A stretch of DNA of 64,000 bases from Prevotella sp. (GCA_031285625.1 JAITVV010000081.1:32001-96000), one strand, 5' to 3'. Positions 30,767 through 51,272 are shown, counted from the stretch's first letter. The notes: generated by a model from the sequence alone, not told the origin. Made by a program: numbers and translations.

Positions 30767-32329
30767 TTGTATAATGAGTATAAAATGAGAAAAAAAAGGA
30801 TACTTTGGGCAGATGATGAAATAGATATGTTGCGTTCACATATTCTCTTCCTGCAAGAAAAGGGATATGAGGTAACTCCCGTTAACAGTGGACAAGACGC
30901 TATTGACTGTATTCGGGAAGAAACCTTTGATATCGTTTTTCTTGACGAGAATATGCCTGGTCTGTCGGGGCTTGAAACACTTAGCCTAATCAAGGAGATC
31001 AATCCCAATATTCCTGTTATAATGATTACCAAGAGTGAGGATGAAGGCATTATGACACATGCTATAGGGAAAAAAATTGCAGATTATCTTATTAAACCGG
31101 TAAATCCGAACCAGATACTCCTTTCCATCAAGAAAAACCTGCATAAGGATGACATCGTCTCTGAAGTAACATTAGAAAGCTACAGGGAGGAATTTAGCAA
31201 AATCAGTACCCAAATAAACGAAACGTCGACTTATGCTGACTGGGTAGATATTTATAAGAAGCTTGTTTATTGGGAACTAGAGCTTACAGCATCAGACAGC
31301 CCATTAATCGATTTGCTTAAGGTGCAAAAAAATGAAGCCAATGATAGCTATTGTAAGTTTATAAAAAAGAACTACGAATCATGGTTTAGAAATGAAGCAA
31401 ACAAACCATTGATGAGTCCCGAACTTTTCTCCAAAAAGGTATTTCCATTATTAGACAATGATGAGAAGGTATTCTTTATACTTATCGATAACTTTCGTTT
31501 AGACCAGTGGTGGGACGTAAAAGACCTGCTGGCAAGCGATTTCTCAATTTCGGAGGATGAATATTTCAGTATATTACCCACTGCAACACAATATGCCCGC
31601 AATGCTATTTTTGCAGGATTGATGCCTTCCCAGATAGCCAAGCTATATCCTCATCTTTGGGTAGAAGAGGAAGAAGATGAAAGTAAAAATCTAAATGAAG
31701 AAGCATTACTGCAAACGCAAATAGATCGTTACAGGAAGAAATATACTTTTTCCTACAATAAACTATTATCCTCTTTTTCGGGTGAGAAGTTAGTTCAGAA
31801 TATGAATACATTGAACAATAAGCAGTTAAATGTAATTGTAATCAATTTTGTAGATATGCTGTCCCATGCGCGTACCGAGTCGAAAATGATACGGGAACTG
31901 GCTTCTGATGAAGCTGCATACCGGTCTCTAACCCGTTCGTGGTTCAAGCATTCCAGTACAATGGATATCCTCAGGAAGGCGAAGGATATGGGATATAAGA
32001 TTATCTTAACCACAGATCATGGAACAATCCGTGTAAAGAACCCTCTAAAAGTAATCGGAGATAAAGCGGTGAATTCAAACATCCGCTATAAAGTAGGTCG
32101 CAATCTTGATTATGACCGTAAAAAAGTTTATGATGTGCATTCACCCGATAAATTCGGGCTTCCGGTTCCACACATCAGTACAAAATATATCTTTGCAACA
32201 GGTGATGATTTCTTTGCTTACCCTAACAATTACAACTATTATGTATCTTACTATACAGATACTTTCCAACATGGTGGTATCTCTATGGAAGAAATGATTG
32301 TTCCTTTTATAACTTTAACAGGAAAGTAA
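30767..32329 (+). CDS. porX: PorX response regulator (REC + PglZ domain)
   Basis: ILWADDE and FLDENMPG receiver; PglZ motifs [18 protein letters not shown] and FQHGGIS; upstream of tsaE. The start is probably 30785. Confidence 0.93.
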
Positions 32330-32833: not shown

Positions 32834-34531
32834 ATGCAATATACATTTTTTGATTTTTTACTGTTCTTAGGCTCTATGGGCCTCTTCCTGTATGGGATGA
32901 AAGTCATGAGCGAGGGGCTCCAGAAATTAGCAGGTGACAAGCTGAGAAGTATACTCACCGCAATGACCAAGAATCGCTTTACCGGAGTTTTAACCGGAGT
33001 ACTAATTACCGCCATTATTCAGTCGTCGAGCGCAACCACCGTTATGGTTGTTAGTTTTGTAAATGCAGGTTTACTTACTCTATATCAGTCTATTGGAGTT
33101 ATATTGGGGGCTAATATCGGAACAACACTCACTGCATGGATTATCTCCTTCTTTGGTTTCAAAGTCGATATTGCATTATTTACATTACCCATTCTGGCTT
33201 TAGCCACACCACTTATATTTTCAAAGAAAAGCACTCGCAAATCTTTAGGTGAATTCATCTTCGGGTTTGCTTTTCTGTTTATGGGGCTTACCAGCCTGAA
33301 AGCAAATGTACCGGACCTCGCGCAGAATCCGGAGATGCTAAGCTTCGTGACTAATTACACCGATATGGGATTTGCTTCCATTGTCTTATTCTTCTTTATT
33401 GGAGCAATATTGACTGTTGTCGTGCAATCATCCAGTGCTACAATGGCTATTACCCTTATTATGTGCGCACAGGGATGGATATCTTATGAGATAGGTGCTG
33501 CATTAGTATTAGGTGAAAATTTGGGAACTACCTGTACTGCAAACATAGCTGCTCTTGCAGGGAACGTATCGGCTAGGCGTGCAGCTTTATCCCACTTTAT
33601 GTTCAATATGTTTGGGGTCATATGGGTATTAGCTATCTTCCATCCTTTCACAACAGGTGTATCCAATCTGGTTGAACACCTGGCTTCGGGGAATGAACAG
33701 ACAATGATCTCATTTAAATTATCAGCATTCCACACTTGCTATAATATATGTAACACCTTCATATTTATATGGCTTATCAAATTCCTGGAAAAAGTTGTTA
33801 CAAAACTACTGCCCCAAAAAGAGGAGGAAGAAGAATTCAGGCTTCAATATATACAAACCGGTCTGGTTTCACTCTCAGAATTATCAATTGTTGAAGCCCG
33901 TCAGGAGATAGGATTATACTCATCCCGTATGCAAAAAATGTTCGGGTTTGTTAAAGAACTTCTGTATGAAGAAAATGAGGCTGCCTTTGAGAAGCTATTT
34001 AACCGTATAGAAAAATATGAGAATATAAGCGATAGTATGGAACTGGAAATCGCTAACTATCTGAATAAGGCTTCGGAAGGAAGATTAAGCTCGGAAGGAA
34101 AGATGGAAATAAGGCTTATGCTGAGGGAAGTAAGCGAAATAGAAAGTATAGGCGACTCCTGCTATAATATGGCAAAGGCTATCAAGCGTAAAAGGAATGC
34201 AAATGCAGAGTTTACTGAATCTCAGTATGAGCATATACAAGAAATGTTTGACCTGTTGACAATGTCTTTTGAGTATATGCAAAAGGTAGTTGAAAAACAA
34301 GAGAACAAAAATAAGAATATCATTCAGGTACTCAATCTGGAGAATGAAATCAACAATCTACGTAACAACCTTAAAACCAAAAATTTATTAGATATAGATA
34401 AGAAAGAATACCCTTACGAAATAGGCGTATTCTATATTGATATTATAGGCGACTGTGAAAAACTCGGCGACTTTATCGTAAATGTCGTTGAAGCTGAATC
34501 TTCTGAATATAAGGAAAGAAAGGGGATTTAA
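32834..34531 (+). CDS. Na/Pi cotransporter family protein with PhoU-like C-terminus
   Basis: Two QSSSAT repeats, GANIGTT and GENLGTT. Confidence 0.95.
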   Translation: MQYTFFDFLLFLGSMGLFLYGMKVMSEGLQKLAGDKLRSILTAMTKNRFTGVLTGVLITAIIQSSSATTVMVVSFVNAGLLTLYQSIGVILGANIGTTLTAWIISFFGFKVDIALFTLPILALATPLIFSKKSTRKSLGEFIFGFAFLFMGLTSLKANVPDLAQNPEMLSFVTNYTDMGFASIVLFFFIGAILTVVVQSSSATMAITLIMCAQGWISYEIGAALVLGENLGTTCTANIAALAGNVSARRAALSHFMFNMFGVIWVLAIFHPFTTGVSNLVEHLASGNEQTMISFKLSAFHTCYNICNTFIFIWLIKFLEKVVTKLLPQKEEEEEFRLQYIQTGLVSLSELSIVEARQEIGLYSSRMQKMFGFVKELLYEENEAAFEKLFNRIEKYENISDSMELEIANYLNKASEGRLSSEGKMEIRLMLREVSEIESIGDSCYNMAKAIKRKRNANAEFTESQYEHIQEMFDLLTMSFEYMQKVVEKQENKNKNIIQVLNLENEINNLRNNLKTKNLLDIDKKEYPYEIGVFYIDIIGDCEKLGDFIVNVVEAESSEYKERKGI

Positions 34532-34536
34532 ATACA

Positions 34537-37140
34537 TCAAAATTTAAAACTAACCGTACCCAAAACATTTATTGGTCTTAATTTATAATTATAATTGTAA
34601 GTATCAAGTGAATTATAAATAGTATAGCTATATTCTTTTTTATTGAATATGTTATTTATATATAATTCATATTCTATTTCTTTATTTTTATATTTGACGC
34701 CGATATTAGCAAATATTAGATTACATGAAAGGCTTTTGGTTATTTCATTGTATAAATATTCCAATTGAGTATCTAGTTCTATCTTACTGTTAAGGAAATA
34801 GTGGCCAGTTAATTTCTGAGATATTTGATAAGTAGATAACTTAGAACTCGAAGATATATCTATTTGTAATCTATTATTCAATATTTCGGCCTGATATGAT
34901 GCTGAGAACTCATCACATATCTTAGTATTAATCTTAGGTATCAAACTCCAAGAAGTAGATTTTAGCGGAACTAACAAACCTTGTTGCATTTTTTCTGATT
35001 TTATAAAGTTGAGATTTGCCAGTAGAGAGAAACCAGTCTTTATATCACCAAAATACTTACCTATATATCCTCTCCACATCCACATTTCATAACGATTCTT
35101 ATGCTCCGAATTACTGATAATACTTTGTTTATTCAAAAAATATTGCTCATCCAATAGATTTCTTCTGAAAGAGGTATAAGCAATAGAAGTATTAAAAAAC
35201 ATTGTTGTTAATGGATTCCTAAAATTGACTCTGATATTTACAGACTGGCTTTCTCGTTTCTGCAATATTCCAGCTTTTACATTCACAGTACGATAATCAC
35301 TGATGATGTATGAATCTGCGAAATCGGTTATATCTCCTATATTATGATTATAACGATATAGAAATGAAGTTTCCCATAACTGATTTATTTTATATGTTAG
35401 CTTTACTTTAGAATCGAGATACAAGAAATCTTCAGATTTGGTTCTATTGTTCATTTTGTCCTGAGACTCCAACCAATGATAAGTAATAGGTACATTAATT
35501 GAAAACTCTATTTTTTTCTTCTTGAAAGAATAGGATGGGTTAATTATTATTTTAAAATAGTTAGCTCTTATTTTGCTAGATGTACTATCTGTTAGTATTG
35601 GATGATTTGATAAATCAGAATTTAGGTTTTCAATATATCCTTCCATATTCAAGTTAAGATATAATCGTGAATTCCCTTTTGAAAATGAAAAGTTACTATT
35701 ATTATTTGTGTATAGCCCATTTTGATTAGTCTTTTGAATCATATCCTCTTTAAGAGTATCAATATCTACTCTCAGATTCTGAGGAAGTGATGTATAACGA
35801 ACGAATGAGGAAATATCCCATATCCGATTATTCCATTTCTTAACATATTGAAAATCATTGGATACTAAATATTCAGGAGTATTAAATTTTTGCATTATTC
35901 TATTTGCATTTTCGATATTCAAACTAGCCTCATTCAATTTTGCTTGCCCTTTCAATATATTACTTATATAGTGCCGGGAAGTATTATCTGTATATGTAAT
36001 AGTTCCATCGATATAATTATTTTTCTTATATGCATTTCTTTGTTCATCAATCTGCAAAGAGTTCTCTGGTAAAAAGTATGAACTATTCTGATAGATTGAT
36101 TCATCCAAAGCGTCATGCAGATAATTTATATTTAGGCGTAATTGACTGTCTTCTCCTGTTTTCCATAGACTATTTAGTGTCGCAATATGGGTTTTATTGA
36201 AAAGATATCGATTTTCTTCTATTGGTGGATTATTTAATACATTATCTGTCAATAGGCCAGAAATTGTTTTATGTTTACTTAAATCCTCTGAGAATAATGA
36301 ATGTTCGGTAAGTTCGGTTGCTATATTGTTCCCTGTATTATTTGTTTTATACATTGCGATAGCTTGATGTTTTCTGTTGGCTTGTAGTGCAAAAGCATCA
36401 ATGTTCCATAGCAAATCTTTTATTCCTCCAATTCCAACTTTTGCAGTGCCTACAGGTCGAGCCATTTTACTATCTTGTAATTTGAGATTAATAGCTGCCT
36501 GACCTGTACTCATCAAATCTTTTAAAGCCTTTACCGGTTGATGATTTTCTATTACTTCCACATTTGTAACTGCATCCACAGGCACATTATTTGTTGCTAT
36601 ACCATATTTTTTATCTAATAAATCCATTCCCTCTATATAGAATTTATTAATTGGCTCACCATTGTATTTTATACCGCCATTCTGTGAAACCTCTATCCCT
36701 GGTAACTTTTTTAATATATCTCCTATTGTACGATCCTGCTGAGAACGAAATGCACCGACACTGTATACAAGAGTGTCTTCTCTACTCCACATCACCTCTG
36801 ATTTAATTACAACCTCCTTTAATTGGATTTCTAATGGCTGTAATGCTACATCTATTACCTGGGAGTTGTTCCTTATTGTAAATACTTTTTGTTTGTATCC
36901 CAGAAAGGATACGGTCAATTCCAATTCTTTATTCTGTGAATCTATTTCTATTTGATAAAAGCCTTTACTATCTGTCAATCCGTAACCTATAATGTCTTGA
37001 TCATTATCGATAATAGAGACAACAACACCATTGATTGGTTTATTATCAATGGTGTCTCTTACAACTCCATGTATTGCTGTTTGGGCTGACAAAAAGAATG
37101 GAGATAAGACTAGAGCTATATATAGTAAATACTTACTCAC
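34537..37140 (-). CDS. TonB-dependent-receptor-like outer membrane beta-barrel with carboxypeptidase-regulatory-like N-domain
   Basis: Signal peptide, VSFLGY, LKEVVIK, plug-like GDILKKLPGIEV, C-terminal SFKF. Its start overlaps the GLPGLI stop. Confidence 0.85.
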   Translation of the reverse strand: MSKYLLYIALVLSPFFLSAQTAIHGVVRDTIDNKPINGVVVSIIDNDQDIIGYGLTDSKGFYQIEIDSQNKELELTVSFLGYKQKVFTIRNNSQVIDVALQPLEIQLKEVVIKSEVMWSREDTLVYSVGAFRSQQDRTIGDILKKLPGIEVSQNGGIKYNGEPINKFYIEGMDLLDKKYGIATNNVPVDAVTNVEVIENHQPVKALKDLMSTGQAAINLKLQDSKMARPVGTAKVGIGGIKDLLWNIDAFALQANRKHQAIAMYKTNNTGNNIATELTEHSLFSEDLSKHKTISGLLTDNVLNNPPIEENRYLFNKTHIATLNSLWKTGEDSQLRLNINYLHDALDESIYQNSSYFLPENSLQIDEQRNAYKKNNYIDGTITYTDNTSRHYISNILKGQAKLNEASLNIENANRIMQKFNTPEYLVSNDFQYVKKWNNRIWDISSFVRYTSLPQNLRVDIDTLKEDMIQKTNQNGLYTNNNSNFSFSKGNSRLYLNLNMEGYIENLNSDLSNHPILTDSTSSKIRANYFKIIINPSYSFKKKKIEFSINVPITYHWLESQDKMNNRTKSEDFLYLDSKVKLTYKINQLWETSFLYRYNHNIGDITDFADSYIISDYRTVNVKAGILQKRESQSVNIRVNFRNPLTTMFFNTSIAYTSFRRNLLDEQYFLNKQSIISNSEHKNRYEMWMWRGYIGKYFGDIKTGFSLLANLNFIKSEKMQQGLLVPLKSTSWSLIPKINTKICDEFSASYQAEILNNRLQIDISSSSKLSTYQISQKLTGHYFLNSKIELDTQLEYLYNEITKSLSCNLIFANIGVKYKNKEIEYELYINNIFNKKEYSYTIYNSLDTYNYNYKLRPINVLGTVSFKF

Positions 37141-37984
37141 TTAACTCTATTGGATTATATGCACGCTTACGCAATGCATGAGCAGGTATATCACCTTGTA
37201 TCATTCCCGAATTTTGTAATGCTGCTCCAGGATTTTCTCTGTATTGTTTATATGATTTCAGGAAAGTTTTTTTATTTGTTTTCATATAATTCCTGTCAAA
37301 TATATATATATTATCTACCCAACGAGGTTTTTCGATCGCAATACATTCAAATGATATTTGTTTTTTATCATCTTCCACCTTTAATATTAGTCCCGGTAGT
37401 CCTGAAAATTTCCAAGGACCATTACTTATAGGAATATCCGGAGTATACCATGCAGTATATTTTCTACCGAAAAGCGTTGTTGATGCTTTTTTACATTTAT
37501 ATCCACTAACAGTTAGATTTCCTGATTCAGATTTCCAATTAGTCTTTATTAATGGTTCTTCATATAAAAAAGAAGACCCTGTAAAGAAATTAGTTGATGT
37601 AATCTTTCCTTTAGGATAATTTGTGAAAATATTTTCCCTCGAACCATTTCTTGTATATATAGAAACTTTTTCCAACATAGAATTTATATCCATACCCTGT
37701 TTGCTGTACACAAAATTTAAAGAATCACCTATTAATTTATTATAATCAGTATATTTTGAGACTCTATTTCCAATCTGAAGCAACATAAGATGTTCTTGAT
37801 AGTTTTGTGTTATTGTATCATTTATAATTCGTTGTCGATATTGTATCCTTATAATAGAACTGTCTAATACAATAGGAGTTTTAGGAATTGAAGCTTTGGT
37901 ATTTTGTCTTTTATCAGGTATAAATATCTGAGCGTTCAAGGTTAATGTTATAAATAAAATGAAGTATAAAATAAAATGTTTCAT
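37133..37984 (-). CDS. GLPGLI family exported protein (copy 2)
   Basis: AWYTPDIPISNGPWKFSGLPGLIL and C-terminal YNPIELSE. Confidence 0.95.
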   Translation of the reverse strand: MKHFILYFILFITLTLNAQIFIPDKRQNTKASIPKTPIVLDSSIIRIQYRQRIINDTITQNYQEHLMLLQIGNRVSKYTDYNKLIGDSLNFVYSKQGMDINSMLEKVSIYTRNGSRENIFTNYPKGKITSTNFFTGSSFLYEEPLIKTNWKSESGNLTVSGYKCKKASTTLFGRKYTAWYTPDIPISNGPWKFSGLPGLILKVEDDKKQISFECIAIEKPRWVDNIYIFDRNYMKTNKKTFLKSYKQYRENPGAALQNSGMIQGDIPAHALRKRAYNPIELSE

Positions 37985-38838
37985 TACTCACTTAACTCTA
38001 TCGGGTTATATGCTCGTTTACGAAATGCTTTAGCAGGTATATCGCCCTGTATCATCCCTGAATTTTGTATTACTGCACCCGGATTATCCTTGTATTGTTT
38101 ATATAATTTAAGAAAAGTCTTCTTATTTGTTTTCATATAATCACTTTCATTCATATATATTGGGTCTTTCCAATGCGGTTTATCTATAGCTATACATTCA
38201 AAAGAAACTTCTTTTTTACTATCTTCTACCTTTAGTATTAACCCAGGTAAGCCTGAGAATTTCCATGGACCGTTGCTTATGGGTATATCTGGAGTATACC
38301 AAGCTGTATATTTTCTACCAAAAAGTGTAGTGGACGCTTTCTTGCATTTATATCCGGCTATAGTCATATTTCCGGATTCCAGTTTCCAATCAATATTTAC
38401 TGATGCCTCTTCATATAGGTATGAAGAGCCTCCAAATAAATTGGTTGATGTGATTTTTCCTTGAGGATAATCTTTAAATATATTTTCTCGAGAGCTTCCC
38501 TTTATATAGGGATGTATCTTAGTAAATATAGTACTCAAATCATCTCCCATTTTGACATACACATCATAAAGGGAATCTGCTTTTAATCCATAGTAATCTG
38601 TATATTTTGATATATTGTTTCCTATCTGAAGTAGCATTATATTATCTGTTTTCTGATTTGTATCAGTTGTATCCTGAATAATTACTTGACGGTATTGTAT
38701 TCTCATTTTAGATGTATCTTGGATGCTTTTCTTTTGTAGCTTCAAGGGTTCTGCAGTACGAGGGTCAACTGTAATTGTTTGAGCATGTAAAAAATTGCAT
38801 GCGAATATAATAAGACAACTTAAAAAAACTTTTTTCAT
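37984..38838 (-). CDS. GLPGLI family exported protein (copy 1)
   Basis: Same GLPGLI signature; the C-terminal half is nearly identical to copy 2. Confidence 0.95.
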   Translation of the reverse strand: MKKVFLSCLIIFACNFLHAQTITVDPRTAEPLKLQKKSIQDTSKMRIQYRQVIIQDTTDTNQKTDNIMLLQIGNNISKYTDYYGLKADSLYDVYVKMGDDLSTIFTKIHPYIKGSSRENIFKDYPQGKITSTNLFGGSSYLYEEASVNIDWKLESGNMTIAGYKCKKASTTLFGRKYTAWYTPDIPISNGPWKFSGLPGLILKVEDSKKEVSFECIAIDKPHWKDPIYMNESDYMKTNKKTFLKLYKQYKDNPGAVIQNSGMIQGDIPAKAFRKRAYNPIELSE

Positions 38839-38863
38839 AAGATATATTTAACTGATATTAAAT

Positions 38864-38919
38864 AGGTTGTCAATAAATAATTTGAATATTTGGCACATCA
38901 TTTATTATATTGACAACCT
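38864..38919 (-). promoter_or_regulatory. Intergenic stem-loop between the peptide gene and the first GLPGLI gene
   Basis: AGGTTGTCAATA (38864-38875) and TATTGACAACCT (38908-38919) are perfect inverted arms; no strong U-tract follows. Confidence 0.65.
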
Positions 38920-38935
38920 CCAAATTTTTGTTTTA

Positions 38936-39112
38936 CTAACAGAAGAAACTATAGATTTCATCTACCCATTGAAGAGTCTCCAACTCTCCAGCTCCAGAAC
39001 AATAATAAGTAGCAGGTGCACCTCCAGGACAATACAAAGTTCCGCAAACTGGAGATGCAGTATTAACAATAAGTACAATTCCGACAATAATAAGGGCTAA
39101 TTTCTTCTTCAT
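38936..39112 (-). CDS. Unannotated 58-aa secreted Cys-rich peptide
   Basis: Hand translation gives MKKKLALIIVGIVLIVNTASPVCGTLYCPGGAPATYYCSGAGELETLQWVDEIYSFFC: a Sec-type signal, 4 Cys including the C-terminal residue, and an A-rich start context. Confidence 0.8.
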   Translation of the reverse strand: MKKKLALIIVGIVLIVNTASPVCGTLYCPGGAPATYYCSGAGELETLQWVDEIYSFFC

Positions 39113-39312
39113 AATTTAAAATTTGAGTTAAACATACACTGCAAATTTCAAAAAATAAAAAGACTAAGAGAGTATAGTATTGCTCCCATATGACTTTTTT
39201 CAGAAGTCTGATCTGGATAACCTGCTTATCATCAAATTGTTAATTGATCCGTCATATAAGAAATATATAACTTTTTAATTGTCTGAAATACAATTAGTTG
39301 TGAATATTCATA

Positions 39313-42051
39313 TTAGAAATCTTCACCTTCATAGTCCTCATTATTCTTTCCCTTACTCTTTATAATGTTGAATTTGTAAGAGAAGCTAAGCATAAAGTAT
39401 CGGCTAACACTGTTGGAGCGCGAATCGGTCATGTAATTACCACTTACATAGCGTGATATATTATTCCTATCATTGAGGATATCAAAGAATTGTAACTTCA
39501 GGGTACCTTTTTTCTTTTTCAGAAATAGTTTTGAGATTGAGGCATTCCAGAGAATCTCGCTTTTCTTAAAATCATCCCCATACCCGCTATAATAAGACAT
39601 ATTTATATCATTTTGTATTGATATGTCTAAGGGGATATCAAATATGGAAGGTATTTTCCATAGGAAAGAATGGAGAACAGTATAGTTTGCTGTATTCCTA
39701 TCCTGAGAGCCGGATAGGTTATTTCGTGTGATATTGAATGAAGCACCCAGTTGCAGGCGTGTTTCAAATTTATCAACTTTGAATTTACCGGCAACCCTCT
39801 CTCCTATCACCACATTATGAGTTATAGCCTTCTCCCCATTCGTATAGCCTATGTTTTTATAATAATTACTATATGTACTATTATCTATCGTAAATTTTTT
39901 ATTACGCAACGGAGTATTAAACATAAAGTTGAGGTTTGCCCCCATATTACCGCTTAGGTTGCGATAGGTATTTATGCTATTACCCTGATCGTCAATTGTC
40001 GTATAATCAACAATATTATTGAACGTATAATTCAGCCCTCCGGACAACATAAGAAAGCGGCTGGTTTCGTAATTCGACTTACGGTAATATACATTGAAGT
40101 TATTGCTGTAGCTTGGCTTCAAATCAGGGTTACCATAGTACTTAGTGAGTGCATTTACAATAACCGTATCGGCTGACAACTGTGTTATTCCAGGCTGACT
40201 TGTCGACCCAGAGTAGCTGATATCCAAACTGGTTTGCTCATTGGGCTGATAAGTAAAATTAAGGCTGGGTGAAAAATTAATCACATTTTGCTTTGTATTC
40301 AGGCTATCGATGGATGTATCGCCTATACTTACCTCGCTTTTTGAATATGAAGGATCAATACTGAGGCCTATAGTATAATTATATTTGTCTTTTGTTGTCT
40401 GAAAATTGAGACTAATGTTCTGGTTTATATATTTATTTTTGGTATTCCTTGCATATGCTGAATCCAAAACCGTATAGTTACCTGCATCATCTTTTGTACG
40501 GACATCACGCATCCGCTTTGAGTTATTCTGTCCATATGAATATGAAAACTGTAGTCTGTGATCTTTACCAATAGGTTCCACATATGACATCGAGATATTA
40601 TAGCTATTGGTTTTATTGTCCGTCTCATTTCGTTGGTCAATGATCTTATCGGGTGTTCCTTCTGTATAGGTTGTATATGAATAGCTGGTTCCTTTGCTAT
40701 TGTCTTTTCGTATCGAATTATTAAAAGTCAGACTAACTGTCCTCCCTTTGTCATTTAGTTTACGCCCTATTGTAAAGAAATTATTGATACTATAACCATC
40801 CCCTTTCGACTGACTATTTGAATACCCTGAAGTTGTATCTTTTTCGGCAACATATGAAATATTAGAAGAGTTCTTCTTATTCATTGTGTTATTAAAGCTA
40901 ATATATGACCGTGCATAGATTGTGGTCAGAGTATCAGGTTTCCATTGCAGGTTCATACCCGCATTATAGTTATCCCGTTTATTCCTCGATGAAGATTCCT
41001 GTTTGGAAAAACGATCACCGGACGAAAGAAAAGTCTGGGTATTAGTTTTTGTCTCCATCAAGTTATCATTACTTGAGTACCTCAGATTTCCCCCGATTCT
41101 GAATTTTTCGGATGACTGTATATAAGCATTGGCTCCAACATTTTTGTTTTTATCAATCCCGTTATCCATCCCCATACTATAGCCATTGTCATTTACATTA
41201 TTCATATCCGCCACAAAAGACATCTGATTATCATTACGCATATAGTTAACCAATGCCTTGTTTGCATACTTGTCGTCACTTCCATATCCGGCCTTTACAT
41301 CGCCAAAGATGCTTTGTCTGAGTTCTTCTTTTACAACAAGGTTCAGTACCTGATCAGGGTCTTTATCTTTAAATCCGGTTACTTTGGCTGTTTCTGATTC
41401 TTCTTTATACAATTGCAGTTTTTTGATCATATTAGCTGGTAAGTTTGCCAATGCCATAGGAATATCATTCCCGAAAAACTCTTTTCCGTCTACCAGTATT
41501 TTTTTTATGGTTTTCCCATTCGCTGTAATATTCCCGTTTTCGTCTACCTCTACACCCGGAATATTTTTCATCATATCCTGTAGCATATCACTCTCCTGTG
41601 AACTATAAGATCCGGCATTGTATTCTATCGTATCTCCTTTGACCACAATATCAGGGACCTGTGCCTCCACCACAGCCTCTTTTAGCTCAACAATATCCTC
41701 ATCAAGATATATATCGCCAAAAGAATAACCCGGTTCTTTTGATGATATTTCAAAATTTTGCAGAAATGCTTTATAGCCTATAAAAGATGCTTCTAGAATA
41801 TATTTACCTGTATTTGCCGAAAGCTTGAATTTGCCTTTCTCATCTGTTGCCACTCCTTTTATATAAGCGCTATCAGACTGATTTAATAATTTTACAGTTA
41901 CAAAAGGGATAGATTCCTTCGTTTTAGAATCGTATACAGTTCCTTGTATATCCTTTCTTATTTGCTGTGCCTGGGCATACATGGCAAATGAAAAAAAGAA
42001 TAATAAAGTAATCTGCAGGTATCTCATTCCTATCGAAAAATATTTTGGCAT
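39313..42051 (-). CDS. Outer membrane beta-barrel protein with carboxypeptidase-regulatory-like N-domain (TBDR-like)
   Basis: ASFIGY, VKGDTIEYNA, KNIPGVEV, VDGKEFFG and YGNPDLKP motifs; related to the 34537 protein. Confidence 0.88.
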   Translation of the reverse strand: MPKYFSIGMRYLQITLLFFFSFAMYAQAQQIRKDIQGTVYDSKTKESIPFVTVKLLNQSDSAYIKGVATDEKGKFKLSANTGKYILEASFIGYKAFLQNFEISSKEPGYSFGDIYLDEDIVELKEAVVEAQVPDIVVKGDTIEYNAGSYSSQESDMLQDMMKNIPGVEVDENGNITANGKTIKKILVDGKEFFGNDIPMALANLPANMIKKLQLYKEESETAKVTGFKDKDPDQVLNLVVKEELRQSIFGDVKAGYGSDDKYANKALVNYMRNDNQMSFVADMNNVNDNGYSMGMDNGIDKNKNVGANAYIQSSEKFRIGGNLRYSSNDNLMETKTNTQTFLSSGDRFSKQESSSRNKRDNYNAGMNLQWKPDTLTTIYARSYISFNNTMNKKNSSNISYVAEKDTTSGYSNSQSKGDGYSINNFFTIGRKLNDKGRTVSLTFNNSIRKDNSKGTSYSYTTYTEGTPDKIIDQRNETDNKTNSYNISMSYVEPIGKDHRLQFSYSYGQNNSKRMRDVRTKDDAGNYTVLDSAYARNTKNKYINQNISLNFQTTKDKYNYTIGLSIDPSYSKSEVSIGDTSIDSLNTKQNVINFSPSLNFTYQPNEQTSLDISYSGSTSQPGITQLSADTVIVNALTKYYGNPDLKPSYSNNFNVYYRKSNYETSRFLMLSGGLNYTFNNIVDYTTIDDQGNSINTYRNLSGNMGANLNFMFNTPLRNKKFTIDNSTYSNYYKNIGYTNGEKAITHNVVIGERVAGKFKVDKFETRLQLGASFNITRNNLSGSQDRNTANYTVLHSFLWKIPSIFDIPLDISIQNDINMSYYSGYGDDFKKSEILWNASISKLFLKKKKGTLKLQFFDILNDRNNISRYVSGNYMTDSRSNSVSRYFMLSFSYKFNIIKSKGKNNEDYEGEDF

Positions 42052-42103: not shown

Positions 42104-42151
42104 AAAAAGTAACAAAAGTAACAGTTTTCAGATATAAACACCTGTCACTTT
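42104..42151 (-). repeat. Dispersed GT(T/C)AC repeat element, copy B
   Basis: Minus strand AAAGTGACA-N20-GTTACTTTTGTTACTTTT; contains the TGA stop of the HTH gene. Confidence 0.75.
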
Positions 42152-42777
42152 CGATACCGGTAACCGGGAGGGACCATCTGATCGGTAACACTTTTAATCG
42201 TAACATACCTGGATTTCTTCTCGGGTTGTGGTTCAATAACCGGGACTTCTGATAATGGTTTTGATTCATCAATTATCTCTCTCTTTTCTTTCGGTATCTG
42301 CGTACTCAATGTCTGCTGCAACAGATTCAGGTAATCTACCGATTTGGGATCGTTAACGGTTATCATCAGTGCCGGATGCGAACTTTCTTTAGCACGCTCA
42401 TGCCTATTGTTATCTCCAGCCAGTAACAGCTTTATCGCATGTGTATCAGGGGCGTATTCTTTTTGTCTTACTACTTGTGACTTTAGTGCCAGTTTTTCAG
42501 GATTATCCTTATCAGGCACATAAGTCGTACGGGTCTCAGTGAGAGTATAGCCTTCCAGTTTTCTCTTCAGTGACTTACGGGCTATCAGCAACAATTTATC
42601 ATCGCGACGATCTGTTGCCTTTTCTATGGCTTTCTCAAATTCAGGCTTGGTATCCTTCCATTCATAAAATGTTTTACGACTTAGTTTTAGTATACTACAT
42701 ATTTCAGAAATACTATAGGTATCTTCTTCGATAAGAGACACAATTTTCTCGACTAATTTTTCGGTGTATTTTGACAT
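42145..42777 (-). CDS. Orphan HTH protein resembling phage terminase small subunit N-terminus
   Basis: SKYTEKLVEKI...SISEICSILKLSRKTFYEWKDTKPEF...SLKRKLEGY...PDTHAI pattern; no other phage genes nearby. Confidence 0.65.
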   Translation of the reverse strand: MSKYTEKLVEKIVSLIEEDTYSISEICSILKLSRKTFYEWKDTKPEFEKAIEKATDRRDDKLLLIARKSLKRKLEGYTLTETRTTYVPDKDNPEKLALKSQVVRQKEYAPDTHAIKLLLAGDNNRHERAKESSHPALMITVNDPKSVDYLNLLQQTLSTQIPKEKREIIDESKPLSEVPVIEPQPEKKSRYVTIKSVTDQMVPPGYRYRK

Positions 42778-42865
42778 ATCTGTTATAAGTTAGAGGTTAA
42801 TAATCTCACTTATAATAGATAAATATTGTAGGAAATTATGCTATATCAAATAGTGATTTACATAA

Positions 42866-44686
42866 TCACCTGCGGAACAGGTGTTTAAATTGATGGGAAT
42901 ATAATTTGGATAGCCCCTGCCTGTTGTCAATGGCATCCCCTACAACAATCATTGTTGTCAGCGTCAGCTTATTCTCCTTTATTATTTTTGCCAGATCCTG
43001 TAATTGCCCTCTGTAAATACGTTCATCTTTCCATGTCAGTTTATAACATGCCGCAATTGGTGTAGTTGGCGGATAATGTTCCAATAATTCTTTTTGAACA
43101 TTCTCAACTACTGTGGCACTAAGAAAAATACATATGGTACTCTGTGAGCGAGCGAGTAAATGAAGTTTCTCTTTATCAGGCATTGGCGTACGACCTTCTC
43201 CTCTTGTCAGGATGATCGTCTGTACTTTCTCAGGTATCGTAAATTGTGACCTGAGAGCAGCTGCAGCGGCCTGAAAAGATGATATACCCGGGGTGATGTG
43301 GTAAGACATATTGTATTCATCGAAGAAAGCCATTTGTTCCTGTATAGCACCATAGATGCACGGATCGCCTGTGTGTAAGCGTACAACAAGTGCACCTCTG
43401 TCATAGAACTCTTTCATCAGAGTAAATTGTTCCTCCAGGTCCATTGATGCGGAACTACGGACTACAGCTCCCTCTTTGGCACAATATGTAAGTTCTATAG
43501 GAACAAGGCTTCCGGCATATAGAATGAGATCGGCCTCTTCAAGAAACTGACGGCCTTTGACAGAGACGAGGTCAGGGTCACCGGGGCCTGCACCTACTAT
43601 TTCGATATGTCCCTGACGAATGGCTGACCGATTGAGAGCAATAGCAAAAGTGAAGTCATTTCCTTTACTTAATACACCTTTTTGTTTCTCCATGATCAAC
43701 TGTCCATAGTCTGCACTCTTGATTGCTGTGGATTCGGATACTCCCTGTACCGAGGTTACTTTTTCCACCTTTTCAGAAGGGTTAGGCACTTCAATATCTT
43801 TCAGTTCATCGGCAGAATAGATATTTACAGGTATATCGTTCAGATACTGTTGAAGGTCTCTTAGTAAGGCTTCATCCTTCTTAATATCGATGGAGGATAT
43901 ATCGGCTATGGAATGTATGGAGATGGAGTTATTTGTTATAGCTTCTGATATGTATTTAGCAATATCTTCCGGATTACAATCTTTCCGACAGCCTATACCC
44001 AGATGCAGAACCTTCGGATGATAACAGATTGTTTGTATTTCTGTTTCAGGATACAGAAAAGGAGTAACAGCAATAAGCAAGTCATACTTATCCTGTCTGA
44101 TGTCTGTATATCTGTAATATATATCTACATGGTCAGGCTTTGTCCTTTCCATATAGGCAGTTCCTTCATCTTTGATATCGAGAAGTAAGGCAACAGGCTT
44201 TTTATTCACAAACGTAGTCAGAGGAGAATTGAAGTTCTCTGCATTAGTATTTGTTGTCCATTCATATTGCTTACCTAAAGTGTCCAATGCCCACAAGCCT
44301 GTGTTGTCACTCTGAGTCGTGATAATAGCGTTTCCTCCGATGATATGGGCTATCTGACTTGTCAGGTCGTTGGCCCCTCCTACATGTCCTGAAAGTACGG
44401 ATATTACATTCTTACCTGTACTATCGATATTGATTACGGCAGGGTCTGTATGTTTATCTTTTATATAAGGTGCAATGCTCCGTACACAAATACCCATTGC
44501 TCCGATGAAAACGATAGATTCTACTTCCGAAAAGAGCTCAGCTACACAATTGCTAATGGAGTCTATATGCTCTGTTCCATCGATCTTATTCTTACTGTAT
44601 ATCTTTGATCCGGTTAATTCTTTGCTTATTGTTTCAGCTAAAGGATAGCTGCTTTCAGATGTGAGGATTATCGCTGTCTTTATCAT
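42866..44686 (-). CDS. cbiF: CbiG-CbiF(CobM) fusion: cobalt-precorrin-5A hydrolase / precorrin-4 C11-methyltransferase
   Basis: CbiG motifs KHTDPAV, LSGHVGGAN and LGIGCRK; CbiF motifs VGAGPGDPDL, YAGSLV and RLHTGDPCIYGAI. Confidence 0.95.
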   Translation of the reverse strand: MIKTAIILTSESSYPLAETISKELTGSKIYSKNKIDGTEHIDSISNCVAELFSEVESIVFIGAMGICVRSIAPYIKDKHTDPAVINIDSTGKNVISVLSGHVGGANDLTSQIAHIIGGNAIITTQSDNTGLWALDTLGKQYEWTTNTNAENFNSPLTTFVNKKPVALLLDIKDEGTAYMERTKPDHVDIYYRYTDIRQDKYDLLIAVTPFLYPETEIQTICYHPKVLHLGIGCRKDCNPEDIAKYISEAITNNSISIHSIADISSIDIKKDEALLRDLQQYLNDIPVNIYSADELKDIEVPNPSEKVEKVTSVQGVSESTAIKSADYGQLIMEKQKGVLSKGNDFTFAIALNRSAIRQGHIEIVGAGPGDPDLVSVKGRQFLEEADLILYAGSLVPIELTYCAKEGAVVRSSASMDLEEQFTLMKEFYDRGALVVRLHTGDPCIYGAIQEQMAFFDEYNMSYHITPGISSFQAAAAALRSQFTIPEKVQTIILTRGEGRTPMPDKEKLHLLARSQSTICIFLSATVVENVQKELLEHYPPTTPIAACYKLTWKDERIYRGQLQDLAKIIKENKLTLTTMIVVGDAIDNRQGLSKLYSHQFKHLFRR

Positions 44687-44687
44687 C

Positions 44688-45878
44688 TTATTTTTTCTTT
44701 ATTGCTTTCATAACTTCAATGGTATTGAAGTCGTCAATTGTGATACAAATGCTTTGCTCTAATGTCAGATTATTATCGTTTAGTGCTTCCAGAAACATAT
44801 TCCGGCTTTCGTCAGAAACGGAATTGAATACGATGCTTCCATTTTCGTTCAATATGTTAGCTACAGTGGAAACAATCTCTTTCATCTTTCCTCCATGCCC
44901 TCCTATAAAGACAGCATCAGGTTTTGGTAGATGTGAAATATCTGTTTCAGTAAAATCAGCTATAATAGCTGTGATTCCCGGTGTGCCGAATTTTTGTGCA
45001 TTCAGTTCCATTAGCTCTTTCCCTTCGTTACGCTGCTCAAATGCAAAGATTTGCAGATGAGGAAATTGAAGTTTAGCCTCTATTGATACAGATCCTGTGC
45101 AAAAACCTATATCCCAAAATACTGCTTTATCTCGGAGTTCGAGCATGCTTAAAGAAAGTAGTCGTATAGGCATCTTGGTAATCATCTTTGCACGCCCATT
45201 AAGTAAATAGAATTCATTTTCAGGAATGCCAAAAGAACGGGGACGATCAGATATCTTTTCTAAAATAAGATTGTTGGGGAAGGCAAAACTTTTGCCTATT
45301 ACGTCTTCCAGTTTATAAGTGGAGAATTTTTCCTGCTCCTTATTTCCTAACAATTCACCGACTGATATACGGTAGTTGTTATATCCGTATTTGAGCATGC
45401 GGGATGCAATAGCAGACGGGGTATGTTCTTTGTTATCTGTCAGTACTCCGATCTTATTATATCCCATTATCAGCGCTTCATCGAACTTATGCCAGGACCT
45501 GCCTGTTAACGATACAATATGCATATCATGATATGGCATGATCAGACGATGTGCAAGCAATTGCAATGAATTGAAGTACGGGTATAGTATTATATCAACG
45601 TCAGGTATCATCCTCTTTACTGTGTTGGCAAAGCCAAAGAATAAGGGATCGCCCGAAGCAAAGACAACGATTGTATTATGCTTCTTATATTCCTCAAAGA
45701 CATTCTCTAAAGGAACGGCAATATCGATCCATATACTCTTTTCAGGTAAAAAAGATTCCACGATCTGATGATGGCGGTTTCCTCCTGAAAAAATGCGATG
45801 AGAACGGATGATATCTAATATTTCTTCCGCGAAATGTTGTTCCTGATCATCGTCGATACCTATTATATAGAATTTCAT
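44688..45878 (-). CDS. cbiE: CbiE-CbiT fusion: precorrin-6Y C5,15-methyltransferase (decarboxylating)
   Basis: ASGDPLFFG, ITKMPIR, WDIGFCTGSVSIE and PDAVFIGG motifs. Confidence 0.95.
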   Translation of the reverse strand: MKFYIIGIDDDQEQHFAEEILDIIRSHRIFSGGNRHHQIVESFLPEKSIWIDIAVPLENVFEEYKKHNTIVVFASGDPLFFGFANTVKRMIPDVDIILYPYFNSLQLLAHRLIMPYHDMHIVSLTGRSWHKFDEALIMGYNKIGVLTDNKEHTPSAIASRMLKYGYNNYRISVGELLGNKEQEKFSTYKLEDVIGKSFAFPNNLILEKISDRPRSFGIPENEFYLLNGRAKMITKMPIRLLSLSMLELRDKAVFWDIGFCTGSVSIEAKLQFPHLQIFAFEQRNEGKELMELNAQKFGTPGITAIIADFTETDISHLPKPDAVFIGGHGGKMKEIVSTVANILNENGSIVFNSVSDESRNMFLEALNDNNLTLEQSICITIDDFNTIEVMKAIKKK

Positions 45879-45880
45879 GA

Positions 45881-47287
45881 TTATACGTCTCTACCGGGTT
45901 TCAATTGTTCTGCATCGTCAAAAGTAAGAATAGAGTTGACCAATGTTGCAGCCAGATTACTTCCTCCCTTGCGCCCTTCTACAATTAGTTTAGGTATATC
46001 CTTGAATGGCTTGGTCATATGTTTGGACTCCCTTACATTTACAAAACCTACAGGAGCAGCAACAATACCTGCCGGATGAGCTTTGTCTTTTCTCACTAAT
46101 TCACACAATTCCATCAGTGCAGTAGGTGCATTACCGAAAACATACAATGCATCGGGATGTTCTTCTACTGCTAAGCGAATACCGGCTTGTGTGCGGGTTA
46201 TTCCTTTTTCTTTTGCGATAGTAGCAACGCGTTCATCATGCAGATAACATTTTACGTCAATGCCTAAGCGATCCAAAGCTCCTTTACGAATACCTGACGC
46301 AGCCATTGTTACATCTGTTATAATTGTTTTCACCTTTCCTTGTATAAACTCATTATGCAGGTTTTCCACAGCATTTTCGTCTACAAGCAGGATATTTTCC
46401 ATATCGAAATCGGCAGTAGTATGTATGGCATGAAGCAATGCCCATTTCTTGCCTAAAGAAATATTCTTATTCTTGAGTTCACCCTCTATAGTGCGGAAAC
46501 TACGGATCATAATATCCTGACCAATACCAATTTCTTCACTTTTAGATTCACGATAGTATCCGCGTGGGGTAATAATATTGTTGTTAGAAATATATGATTG
46601 GGAATTTCCTATAATGATAATCGTGAACATATCTATTTCTTCAGGATCGAATTCAGCAAGGGTAGTAACCTTTATTTCCTGTTCCTCACGTCCTGCCTGA
46701 CGTACATAACCAATAGGCGTTTCGGGAGATCGTTCTTTCAGAAAAAGCTCGATCAATCGGTATAATTGCCAATAACGTCCTTTGCTTTTTGGATTGTAGA
46801 TAGCAGTTACAAAATCGGCAGAAACTGCTGCCGATATTCGCTTTTCTATTCTGTCCCAAGGTGTCATTAGGTCTGAAAGGGAAATGATGCAGAAATCGTG
46901 TCCGATGGGTGCACCAAGCAATGCTGCCGCTTTCTGGAATGCGCTTATGCCGGGTAGTACTTCCACTTCTATTCTGCTTTTCCTCTCATCCCTCATTTCG
47001 TAGACAAGCGGAGCCATTCCATAAATGCCGGAATCGCCGGAACTAATGACACAAACAGTCTTGCCTTTTTCTGCATGAAGAAAAGCCTCTTCTGCACGTT
47101 CACGCTCTTTTTTCATGCCTGTATCGATACAGATTGTATCAGAATTGATTATATTCTCTACAAACTGAAAATAGTACTTATAACCGACTATAACCTGCGA
47201 TATTTTCATTGCATCTATCACAGCCGGTGTAATATCTTCCTTTGATCCGGGGCCTATTCCGGCAACTATTATTTTCCCTTTTGTCAT
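45881..47287 (-). CDS. cbiH: CbiH(CobJ)-CbiC(CobH) fusion
   Basis: GIGPG, SSGDSGIYGM and ISLSDLMTPW; then IHTTADF, GNAPTAL, PVGFV and GRKGGS. Confidence 0.95.
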   Translation of the reverse strand: MTKGKIIVAGIGPGSKEDITPAVIDAMKISQVIVGYKYYFQFVENIINSDTICIDTGMKKERERAEEAFLHAEKGKTVCVISSGDSGIYGMAPLVYEMRDERKSRIEVEVLPGISAFQKAAALLGAPIGHDFCIISLSDLMTPWDRIEKRISAAVSADFVTAIYNPKSKGRYWQLYRLIELFLKERSPETPIGYVRQAGREEQEIKVTTLAEFDPEEIDMFTIIIIGNSQSYISNNNIITPRGYYRESKSEEIGIGQDIMIRSFRTIEGELKNKNISLGKKWALLHAIHTTADFDMENILLVDENAVENLHNEFIQGKVKTIITDVTMAASGIRKGALDRLGIDVKCYLHDERVATIAKEKGITRTQAGIRLAVEEHPDALYVFGNAPTALMELCELVRKDKAHPAGIVAAPVGFVNVRESKHMTKPFKDIPKLIVEGRKGGSNLAATLVNSILTFDDAEQLKPGRDV

Positions 47288-47292
47288 GTATG

Positions 47293-48768
47293 TTAGTTGT
47301 GTTTATTAGAACAAATATACTTCTTTAATTTCTTAACTTTCCGTTTCAGATATCCAAACCCTAGCCAAACTCCTGATACGGATACAATTGTTCCACCAAT
47401 CATGGTTGTCCACATAATAATATTCCAAAGAATTTTATTTTCTGCCGTAAGTTTAAACTTGAAACTATGTAATGCCTGATAAGACCAACGCCTTACTTTG
47501 GTATTCGTATTAAAATAGCGCGTATTCCCGTTTTTAGGATTGATATAATAGGTGCTGCCATCTGCATCATCTATTTCAGCTTTATATACAGGTAATGGTA
47601 AATGATCGGACAGGCCTACATAGTAGTTGTCATACTCCGTCATTAATGAAAGTGTAACCGGCTCGGAATGAACTAATGCCAACCTTTCTTTTATATCCTG
47701 TTCGTTTAGTGACAGATCCTTAATTTCTTCAGAAGAGGCATCAATAGTTATTAACCGATTATTTATGACAGCCTTATAGATGGGTTTATTTCCAAATGAT
47801 GTCCATTCTATGCTTTTTACCTCATCAGGGTATTTATCAAATATTCTATGATAGTCCAATATGTAATTTTGGAGCTTGATAGGTTCTTGCGCATACAATT
47901 TTTTCTCTATGTCAGAATTATGCACTTTAACTATCCATTGAGGAACAGGAGCCAATGACATCATTCCGCTGAATACAAATGTAAAAACAAATATGCCGAA
48001 TATAAATCCTAATATATGATGCCATTTATAGATAATCTTTTTATATGGAGTCTTCAGCTTCTTTCTCCGGCGATATTGTACAATATAGGAACGTACGCCA
48101 AGGATAATGCCAGCAAGGCACATTAGTGAACCAATGCCTGAAAGCCATACTACCACGTCTATCCATAGTTGGGAATTTTGCCGGAGTGAGGTAAAATACA
48201 CCCAGTGGGGTATTGCTCCCAGCCATGCCCAGAAACGATTGTTTTCATCGGTAAATTGCAAAGCCTCACCTGTACGTGATGATATATAGAGTTGATGTTT
48301 GTCTTTATCTCCAAAATAGAATTTATAGATAGGAAACTCTTTTTTCAAACGCCCAAAAGGTATCCATTGATCCAATTCACGTAATGTATCTACCTGTACT
48401 ATTTCAGCGTCATTCCATCGTTGTGCATATTCCTTTATCTGTTCATATGTAGAGGATCGTACATTCTGCATGGACAAGTCTGCAAAAATCCGGCTGTTAT
48501 TCCCTGAGGACGAAACAACGAAGAAAGGCTTATTTGCATAAGACTGTAATGCTAATTTAGTTATTGTACTATCCGATTTCTTTATGATTGAATCAATAGG
48601 TAGAATATCCCCCTGCAACACATCCATATTTTTATATGTGTCGCGATTGCTTACTTTCGGAAAAGTATGATATATCATTACAAAACCTGAAAGGAACCAG
48701 ATCAGGAACAGGATACTGAGAATTGTACCCAGTATCCTGTGAAAAGAATAGAATATCTTTGTTAGCAT
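47293..48768 (-). CDS. PepSY-associated TM protein (BtuN-like)
   Basis: HRILG..LSILFLIWFLSG, WLGAIPHWVYF, WHHILG and RRWSYQALHS motifs. Confidence 0.85.
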   Translation of the reverse strand: MLTKIFYSFHRILGTILSILFLIWFLSGFVMIYHTFPKVSNRDTYKNMDVLQGDILPIDSIIKKSDSTITKLALQSYANKPFFVVSSSGNNSRIFADLSMQNVRSSTYEQIKEYAQRWNDAEIVQVDTLRELDQWIPFGRLKKEFPIYKFYFGDKDKHQLYISSRTGEALQFTDENNRFWAWLGAIPHWVYFTSLRQNSQLWIDVVVWLSGIGSLMCLAGIILGVRSYIVQYRRRKKLKTPYKKIIYKWHHILGFIFGIFVFTFVFSGMMSLAPVPQWIVKVHNSDIEKKLYAQEPIKLQNYILDYHRIFDKYPDEVKSIEWTSFGNKPIYKAVINNRLITIDASSEEIKDLSLNEQDIKERLALVHSEPVTLSLMTEYDNYYVGLSDHLPLPVYKAEIDDADGSTYYINPKNGNTRYFNTNTKVRRWSYQALHSFKFKLTAENKILWNIIMWTTMIGGTIVSVSGVWLGFGYLKRKVKKLKKYICSNKHN

Positions 48769-48770
48769 AA

Positions 48771-51128: not shown

Positions 51129-51219
51129 AGTTCTTTTTATTTGAATAATTAAATAACTAAAGTATTTGTATTCACTTGATTTTTGTCATCTCTCCTCTTT
51201 TCCTTGATAAATGGGTCGG

Positions 51220-51246
51220 GATGCTTCCTATCGTCAGCATGACAAA
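51220..51246 (+). repeat. REP-like repeat arm (inverted copy of 53328-53354)
   Basis: GATGCTTCCTATCGTCAGCATGACAAA, the exact reverse complement of 53328-53354. Confidence 0.85.
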
Positions 51247-51272
51247 ATACTTCAATAAATGTCTGCCATAAC

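Follow-up and report, generated by a model that had tools for sequence, protein, structure and literature searches.

A small secreted cysteine peptide gene heads GLPGLI and TonB-receptor-like barrel genes in a Bacteroidota genome: a candidate peptide-handling module

The action of a TonB-dependent transporter in secretion has a precedent in the Oar-PopC system of Myxococcus xanthus, where release of a periplasmic intermediate from the cell requires an outer-membrane protein of this type (PMC6434023). Other described systems touch the subject of this report from the periplasmic side: in the Lol pathway LolA carries a lipidated ligand and has LolB as its partner, and RseB and MucB bind the periplasmic domains of RseA and MucA and regulate a sigma-factor pathway. 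Methanobactin-type operons combine a ribosomally synthesized and post-translationally modified peptide (RiPP) with a TonB-dependent importer and a periplasmic binding protein. Finally, the GG-Bacteroidales radical S-adenosylmethionine (rSAM) clusters, defined by TIGR04149, TIGR04148 and TIGR04150, have been described as putative sactipeptide clusters in Bacteroides, with GLPGLI proteins unmentioned in the available portion of that paper (PMC4573289). Here we analyze a locus at positions 34,537 to 39,112 of a 64,000-nucleotide stretch of DNA from Prevotella sp. (GCA_031285625.1 JAITVV010000081.1:32001-96000), the whole of which is called the window below, in which a small cysteine peptide gene is followed by two GLPGLI genes and by the gene of an outer-membrane barrel. 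Our main finding is that this small gene, missed by annotation, is very probably real, that its counterparts hold the same place before GLPGLI genes of other genomes, and that GLPGLI genes are translationally coupled to a TonB-receptor-like barrel with a plug-like region. A full-text search on family names and identifiers found no description in print of such a peptide-GLPGLI-barrel module.

The locus resembles each of these systems in part. Oar, which we take to have a carboxypeptidase-regulatory-like N-domain like that of the window barrel, is likened to it by domain type only; its cargo in the PopC system is a full-size protease, whereas that of the window would be a 39-residue peptide, and no LolA-like carrier is described for Oar, whereas the window module has one in GLPGLI. 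The GLPGLI proteins are LolA-like: they have the LolA/LolB/RseB fold, with the open (unclosed) beta-barrel of the LolA/LolB superfamily. They differ from the Lol pathway in that those of the window matched no LolA family in Pfam and NCBIfam scans, in that their partner is a barrel with a plug-like region and not LolB, and in that the presumed ligand is an unlipidated peptide, with no lipobox visible by eye ahead of its Cys. Unlike the RseB/MucB systems, the window block contains no anti-sigma factor or protease genes, and unlike the N-terminal domain of PNGase F-II (PDB 4r4z, 7zgn), which is fused to a glycanase, GLPGLI stands alone. With methanobactin operons the locus shares a small Cys peptide gene beside genes of a TonB-type barrel and a periplasmic binder, but the fold of the binder differs and the window has neither modifying enzymes nor a dedicated exporter. 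The likeness to the GG-Bacteroidales rSAM clusters is that GLPGLI and barrel families lie beside the Cys-rich precursor in 4/20 of them; the window peptide, however, has a Sec signal and not a double-glycine (GG) leader, and maturase, C39 peptidase and ABC exporter are all absent from the window.

On the minus strand the order is a 58-codon open reading frame (ORF), a 97-nt spacer with a hairpin, GLPGLI-1, GLPGLI-2 and the gene of the 867-residue barrel. A first-pass annotation of the window had read this block as a candidate peptide export or signalling system, and its description of the parts holds good: the ORF with its signal peptide and four Cys, the stem-loop behind it, the tandem GLPGLI genes (1-nt overlap) and the barrel gene (8-nt overlap) are all present as it had placed them, the block is indeed more AT-rich than its surroundings (GC 0.26-0.34 over 34500-39500, 0.35-0.43 in the flanks), and a family scan of the window revealed no modifying enzyme genes beside it. 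The small gene (38936..39112, minus strand) has an ATG start and the stop codon TAG, and encodes a 58-residue precursor, MKKKLALIIVGIVLIVNTASPVCGTLYCPGGAPATYYCSGAGELETLQWVDEIYSFFC, with four Cys, one of them the final residue. By eye its N-terminus has a Sec-type layout, MKKK followed by a 12-residue hydrophobic core and NTA/S, so that the predicted signal peptide covers approximately residues 1-19 (39056-39112, minus strand) and the mature part 39 residues (38939-39055, minus strand), one more than first estimated, with a net charge of -4. When the 474-nt intergenic space was shuffled, an ATG ORF reaching 58 residues or more appeared on the same strand in 171/5000 shuffles (3.4%), and one of that length with a signal-like start and at least two Cys in 9/5000.

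Sequence searches with the window ORF by itself returned little. Among 5.77 billion proteins its sole match was itself, no second copy was found in its own genome, and the best E-value against the 40 relatives searched was 0.07; it matched no NCBIfam family at E <= 0.01 and no Pfam family at E <= 0.1. A double-glycine leader is absent, as is a match to the precursor models TIGR04149 and TIGR01847, the N-terminus being of Sec type instead. ESM Atlas searches with the peptides gave unnamed Bacteroidota clusters only, at 0.76-0.79, which is under the level the tool regards as meaningful.

The small ORF is judged to be a gene because counterparts hold the matching position in other genomes, and it is this positional evidence that is decisive. 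We surveyed 75 loci from named Bacteroidota genomes, retrieved with an alignment of six GLPGLI proteins, as GLPGLI-1 used as a single protein retrieved nothing. ORFs were counted with a simple caller and pattern rules (ATG starts, a signal-like regular expression), and since the loci differ in how closely they are related, the figures given here are counts and not independent trials. For 81 GLPGLI clusters the upstream stretch measured at least 400 nt; in 12 of them (10 loci) it holds, directly next to the cluster and on its strand, an ORF with a Sec signal and two or more Cys, and in seven a GG-leader Cys peptide. With matched criteria, such ORFs precede 12/85 GLPGLI heads compared to 2/333 other genes of the loci, one of these two being a GG-type peptide; on the antisense strand the count is 2/73. 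The same association emerges when the search starts from the peptide: a profile of the mature part matches 4/401 genomes of the order (G000, G015, G043 and G135), and in 4/4 the match lies directly before a GLPGLI gene. G015, a congeneric genome, has a 60-residue ORF with a signal peptide and six Cys, followed by a hairpin, directly before a GLPGLI gene whose product is 44% identical to GLPGLI-1; an 874-residue barrel follows, with an 8-nt GTG overlap as in the window. Comparable peptide ORFs at homologous loci, whose absence the first-pass annotation would have counted against its reading, therefore exist, and we hold it very likely that the small ORF is a real gene belonging to a family linked to GLPGLI.

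The architecture is not uniform among the loci. Three tandem peptide-GLPGLI cassettes with divergent peptides succeed one another in one uncultured Bacteroidales genome (L107, 4678-8978), and no barrel is found in the 1.7 kb after them. Elsewhere, four to five tandem GLPGLI genes occur with no interleaved peptides (L058, 589-5825; L086, 272-4112), an arrangement that recalls orphan immunity arrays. On a Proteiniphilum contig (L041, 172-662), two small membrane-protein-like ORFs of 69 and 94 residues replace the Cys peptide before a tandem GLPGLI pair. Upstream of the closest GLPGLI homologue (L037, G011:C32, 170-700) there are repeated segments, with a peptide-like string present twice in one frame and mirrored ORFs opposite, possibly short repeats or else a decayed element.

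Judged by the pattern of its residues, the window peptide is a member of a loose, unnamed family of acidic peptides with a Sec signal and two invariant Cys, and its gene product would be the precursor of a secreted, anionic, four-Cys mini-protein. In the family alignment (n = 27), C28 and C58 (numbered as in the window ORF) are invariant and the Gly after the first Cys, G31, nearly so. In the shared layout the signal peptide is followed by a short alternating strand that closes with Cys, then by a turn, a second strand and an acidic helix; the last family Cys sits at the end of this helix, and a variable tail of 0 to 20 residues comes after it. The mature peptides are anionic in 27/27, from -2 to -9. 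The window ORF shows every mark of membership: it begins with a signal peptide, its short strand leads to a Cys(-Gly), its acidic helix finishes on Cys and its gene lies immediately 5' of GLPGLI. The family profile recovers it at 3.4e-10. Neither Pfam nor NCBIfam holds a family for these peptides. With a full-length profile 26 proteins were found at E <= 0.01, each 'hypothetical' or unnamed; with a mature-only profile, 11 were found at E <= 0.001 among 1.84 billion representatives, of which eight are the queries or near copies of them and three are new and of matching layout. AlphaFold2, run from the family alignment, produced a modest model (mean predicted local distance difference test score, pLDDT, 72; 77-80 in the mature part) with strands at 22-26 and 34-37 and a helix at 43-57, for which Foldseek found no match in the PDB at E <= 0.001. 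A disulfide bond may join C28 and C58, and another the second Cys pair of the window member. We also compared the Sec-type peptides with the core of a GG-leader peptide (L080), which looks alike by eye; kinship between them was unsupported (hhalign E 0.055, BLASTP E 13).

The spacer between the peptide gene and GLPGLI-1 contains the stem-loop (38864..38919, minus strand), which consists of a 12-bp perfect outer stem and then AUUUAAUAU. Its folding free energy of -20.5 kcal/mol (z -3.77) was equalled by 0/200 shuffles, and its stem stops 25 nt before the ATG of GLPGLI-1, leaving that start codon uncovered. Spacer hairpins recur across the family, with z <= -3.5 in 9/14 loci and z <= -2.5 in 11/14; they have unrelated sequences, and several precede a T-run. 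The hairpin is probably a transcript 3' end or a partial terminator that would set the ratio of peptide to downstream genes. More peptide message than downstream message is the pattern of many peptide operons. A possible -7 promoter element, GAAATTTG (39142..39149, minus strand), ends 29 nt before the ATG of the peptide gene. This is a weak call; the element has one mismatch to the Bacteroidota -7 consensus TAnnTTTG. Exact copies of that motif precede the peptide ORF in only 3/14 family loci, and none was found in the peptide-GLPGLI spacers of the 14 loci. A sigma-70 promoter scan gave results no better than shuffles.

GLPGLI-1 (37984..38838, minus strand) encodes 284 residues with a signal peptide ending LHA/Q and a LolA-like open beta-barrel, and is a putative periplasmic carrier; GLPGLI-2 (37133..37984, minus strand) encodes 283 residues, its start overlapping the stop of GLPGLI-1 by 1 nt. 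Because the two proteins are 65% identical and sisters in the GLPGLI tree, we regard them as a recent tandem duplicate. Their place in TIGR01200 is clear, with 198.5 and 186.3 bits for GLPGLI-1 and GLPGLI-2 against a cut-off of 50 (E 6.8e-55 for GLPGLI-2), and they score 48.8 and 44.1 bits with PF09697, whose cut-off is 25. Both contain the motif SGLPGLILKV, and G196-L-P-G-L-I201 is invariant in 59 sequences. A library of viral structures gave no match to GLPGLI at E <= 0.001. In a quick tree of GLPGLI proteins, the six GG-linked rows all lie within one half, and the 22-row clade of the window holds nine Sec-type rows, whereas a 12-row gut clade holds none. Peptide labels need 15 changes on this tree compared to a mean of 18.4 when shuffled, a value reached in 2/200 shuffles. 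The extreme C-terminus, PYNPIELSE (window 37984-38010 and 37133-37160), is also conserved, N278 and P279 being nearly invariant and E281 invariant in the 59 sequences, and it may be a docking tail. In a different subfamily, represented by a second module of the same genome (L040), the C-terminus ends ..EYxSLETE. As to function, a full-text search on the family name found none in print for GLPGLI; one paper, in its accessible part, merely lists GLPGLI genes (PMC9603813).

The 867-residue outer-membrane protein (34537..37140, minus strand) starts with a GTG that overlaps GLPGLI-2 by 8 nt and ends in VSFKF. It comprises a signal peptide, a CarboxypepD_reg-like N-domain (CarbopepD_reg_2 at 1.2e-11), a plug-like region with a weak match to Plug (PF07715; 17.7 bits, under the cut-off of 23.9) and a barrel that Pfam leaves uncovered, neither PF00593 nor PF14905 matching it. 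The proteins encoded beside GLPGLI are one family: in an alignment of 35 sequences, CarbopepD_reg_2 is found in 34/35, Plug in 9/35 (best 2.3e-7) and a Pfam barrel model in 1/35. Such a barrel, of at least 700 residues, directly follows GLPGLI in 47/68 clusters with room for it. In a profile comparison, the family profile aligned with another protein of the window, of 912 residues and with PF14905/PF00593 matches, over 596 columns (hhalign probability 99.8, E 2.9e-29); with a classical receptor it aligned over the last 83 residues only (probability 15.6). By this homology the barrel is a divergent TonB-receptor-like protein, as the first-pass annotation had supposed. Between N-domain and plug, an L-x-E-V motif (L107, E109; LKEVVIK after the N-domain in the window) is nearly invariant, and its position would correspond to that of the TonB box in SusC-type proteins. 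The 912-residue outer-membrane protein just mentioned, with CarbopepD_reg and PF14905/PF00593 domains, is itself encoded on the strand of the module (39313-42051, minus), at a distance of 200 nt upstream of the peptide gene; BLASTP too identifies it as homologous to the module barrel, at 27% identity over the first 250 residues.

A second class of peptide brings GLPGLI close to known RiPP clusters. The GG-leader peptides beside GLPGLI match TIGR04149, with up to 55.9 bits, and two of the loci (L073 and L054) have as neighbors a TIGR04148 rSAM maturase (548 and 549 bits, cut-off 300) and a TIGR04150 pseudo-rSAM protein. The maturase was found in 25/401 genomes of the order, and of 20 loci examined around it, 16 have no gene of either family and four, which are TIGR04148/TIGR04150 clusters, have GLPGLI together with the barrel (E 1e-81 to 1e-302). 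In those four clusters the GG-leader Cys peptide stands between barrel and GLPGLI. The presence of the pair beside GG-leader RiPP precursors fits a peptide-handling module. A motif script found C39-ABC-like ORFs (N-terminal DCGP motif and Walker A) and an HlyD-sized gene in RiPP clusters with and without the pair. Replacement of ABC/HlyD export by GLPGLI and barrel was considered and rejected, exporter-like genes being kept either way; the pair would therefore be an add-on in these clusters. One RiPP cluster (L073, 173-1732, equivalent to L126, 1331-2890) is headed, ahead of the barrel, by a gene for a 519-residue fusion of C39-peptidase-like, VKOR and thioredoxin domains, for which NCBIfam has no model and which hints that cleavage of the leader and disulfide formation are coupled in the envelope.

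We propose the following explanation of the window locus. The product of the 58-codon gene would be exported by Sec and cleaved to approximately 39 residues, and would then fold as a beta-hairpin with an acidic C-terminal helix, stapled by C28 and C58 and, in the window member, by a second Cys pair. The LolA-fold GLPGLI proteins would bind it in the periplasm and hand it to the translationally coupled TonB-receptor-like barrel, and thus through the outer membrane; the hairpin after the peptide gene would ensure more peptide transcript than carrier and barrel transcript. The direction we favor is outward: with the help of a carrier, a peptide delivered by Sec would be released in a TonB-type manner, much as PopC is by Oar. 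The peptide is most likely the cognate cargo or ligand of carrier and barrel, but the steps differ in how far we would trust them. Binding by GLPGLI we rate as an even chance, and passage through the barrel as a possibility somewhat short of that, as we do the whole explanation in which the peptide is the cognate partner of both. Should the peptide pass through the barrel, outward movement is rather more probable than inward, because Sec leaves the peptide in the periplasm, porins cannot pass a 4-kDa anion, and neither another exit nor an inner-membrane importer is encoded in the three-gene unit. Export, with all its steps taken together, is the reading we prefer, though it is less probable than not. 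In its widest form, which we put forward as speculative, GLPGLI and the coupled barrel might constitute an undescribed outer-membrane peptide-release route of Bacteroidota, in which a LolA-fold chaperone feeds disulfide or thioether peptides outward through an energized plugged barrel; these peptides would reach the periplasm by Sec, as in the window, or by C39-ABC exporters, as in the rSAM RiPP clusters.

Several observations weigh against this explanation. To our knowledge, nearly all characterized TonB-dependent transporters import, and the retention of exporter-like genes in RiPP clusters with the pair speaks against a role as substitute exporter. No complementarity was seen between the net charge of GLPGLI and the acidic peptides, and even within the genus the similarity of the peptides is weak (33% identity over 43 residues, E 0.006, between those of the window and G015). 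Of the GLPGLI clusters, 62/81 have neither a Sec nor a GG Cys peptide adjacent, and a relaxed scan (any start, at least 25 residues) revealed no hidden peptides in 10 of the peptide-less loci. The genome with the closest GLPGLI homologue (G011, 46% identity), which has GLPGLI and barrel, shows no Cys-peptide ORF in the 1035 nt up to the contig end. In the genome of the window itself, the second module (L040, 6354-9910, G000:C23; GLPGLI of 294 residues, barrel of 876) has no Cys-peptide ORF upstream, and it follows that the pair works without a neighboring peptide. The first-pass claim of a dedicated peptide module must accordingly be divided: the recurring peptide-GLPGLI(-barrel) layout and the RiPP link speak for it, and the 62/81 clusters and the second module without a peptide speak against it.

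Among the other explanations, import or recapture reverses the direction: the peptide would leave by some other route and act outside, as a signal or in metal binding, and the barrel would retake it with GLPGLI as the receiving periplasmic binder, an arrangement resembling by analogy the transporter and binding-protein pair of methanobactin operons. The plug-like region of the barrel and its conserved LxEV, at what would be the SusC-type TonB-box place, would suit uptake, as would Cys-rich and acidic peptides, and an add-on beside the C39-ABC/HlyD exporter that RiPP clusters with the pair keep for themselves is what an uptake arm would be. Import is moreover the rule for the TonB-dependent class (PMC6434023). 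Yet the type-A loci scanned contain neither an inner-membrane importer nor an exporter for a 4-kDa peptide, the GLPGLI fold is LolA-like and not that of a solute-binding protein, and the peptide has no metal-binding motifs beyond the Cys, so that we find import improbable, if deserving of attention. That 62/81 loci have no peptide, and that a whole 12-row gut clade of the tree has none, would be accommodated if the pair moved another hydrophobic cargo, lipid or small molecule, with the peptide as an optional lid, adaptor or regulator in some lineages; to judge from the titles of the structural matches, LolA-fold proteins typically hold acyl chains or lipids. Such an accessory role for the peptide seems quite unlikely in view of the one-to-one peptide-GLPGLI cassettes of L107, with no barrel between them, and of the fact that the pair recurs next to two peptide classes unrelated to each other, which points to peptides as the object handled.

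The same L107 cassettes could also be read as bacteriocin and immunity pairs, in which the peptide is a toxin, GLPGLI a sequestering periplasmic immunity protein and the GLPGLI-only arrays of three to five genes (L058, L086, L106) orphan immunity genes; the proximity of the pair to GG-leader precursors of bacteriocin type and its patchy, accessory, low-GC distribution would agree with this. However, mature peptides that are anionic in 27/27 cases (-2 to -9) are unlike most membrane-active bacteriocins, the peptide matches no bacteriocin family, and the translational coupling of GLPGLI to the barrel would be left unexplained, all of which makes a toxin distinctly unlikely. Two further possibilities deny the peptide any function. 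If the ORF were a cis-regulatory leader, translated only to control downstream genes through the hairpin by attenuation or SecM-like secretion monitoring, a hairpin directly after it in 9/14 loci and the lack of an exact -7 motif in the 14 spacers would be expected; but the layout of the mature part is conserved (two invariant Cys, hairpin and helix), tails of 0-20 residues after the last Cys argue against an arrest motif at the stop codon, and the hairpin falls short of the GLPGLI start codon by 25 nt, and we give a leader very little credence. An unexpressed chance ORF would account for the absence of any relative besides itself in 5.77 billion proteins, and in such AT-rich DNA 3.4% of shuffles produce an ORF of this length. 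It is hardly credible given that signal and two Cys come together in only 9/5000 shuffles, that counterparts occupy the equal position in other genomes and that their profile finds the window ORF at 3.4e-10.

With regard to its origin, the block looks accessory, on account of patchy distribution, lost synteny and low GC. Among named genomes, those of Dysgonomonas come nearest, with 76-80% identity in a housekeeping transporter. Among 24 members of the genus, 12 have some GLPGLI homologue and only two have one above 40% identity; none is found in the two nearest relatives, whose Na/Pi gene is 79-80% identical. In these two, synteny is lost right after the Na/Pi transporter gene, and they share nothing with the window past approximately 34507, at the DNA or the protein level, which means that an island boundary cannot be drawn from them. 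Elsewhere in the window, a minus-strand region (42145-52211) encodes a 210-residue protein that weakly matches a phage small terminase. After it come the genes of a cobalamin-synthesis block (CbiG-methylase fusion, CbiC fusion and CbiK), with a PepSY-TM protein and a classical TonB-dependent receptor. On the plus strand (30767-32329) lies a gene, listed with a TTG start, for a 520-residue fusion of a response-regulator receiver domain to a PglZ domain.

These results bear on a large paralogous family of Bacteroidota, with members in gut, oral and environmental species, and give it three handles: its likely ligand, a small secreted peptide; its LolA-like fold; and the TonB-type barrel coupled to it. 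The peptide family was missed by annotation, and similar small genes are probably under-counted. Since the pair occurs next to two classes of peptide that are unrelated, it is a concrete candidate for the way in which small peptides and RiPPs get past the outer membrane in Bacteroidota. If true, the release route would explain how small peptides are released without a type IX signal, and would give the GLPGLI family a function.

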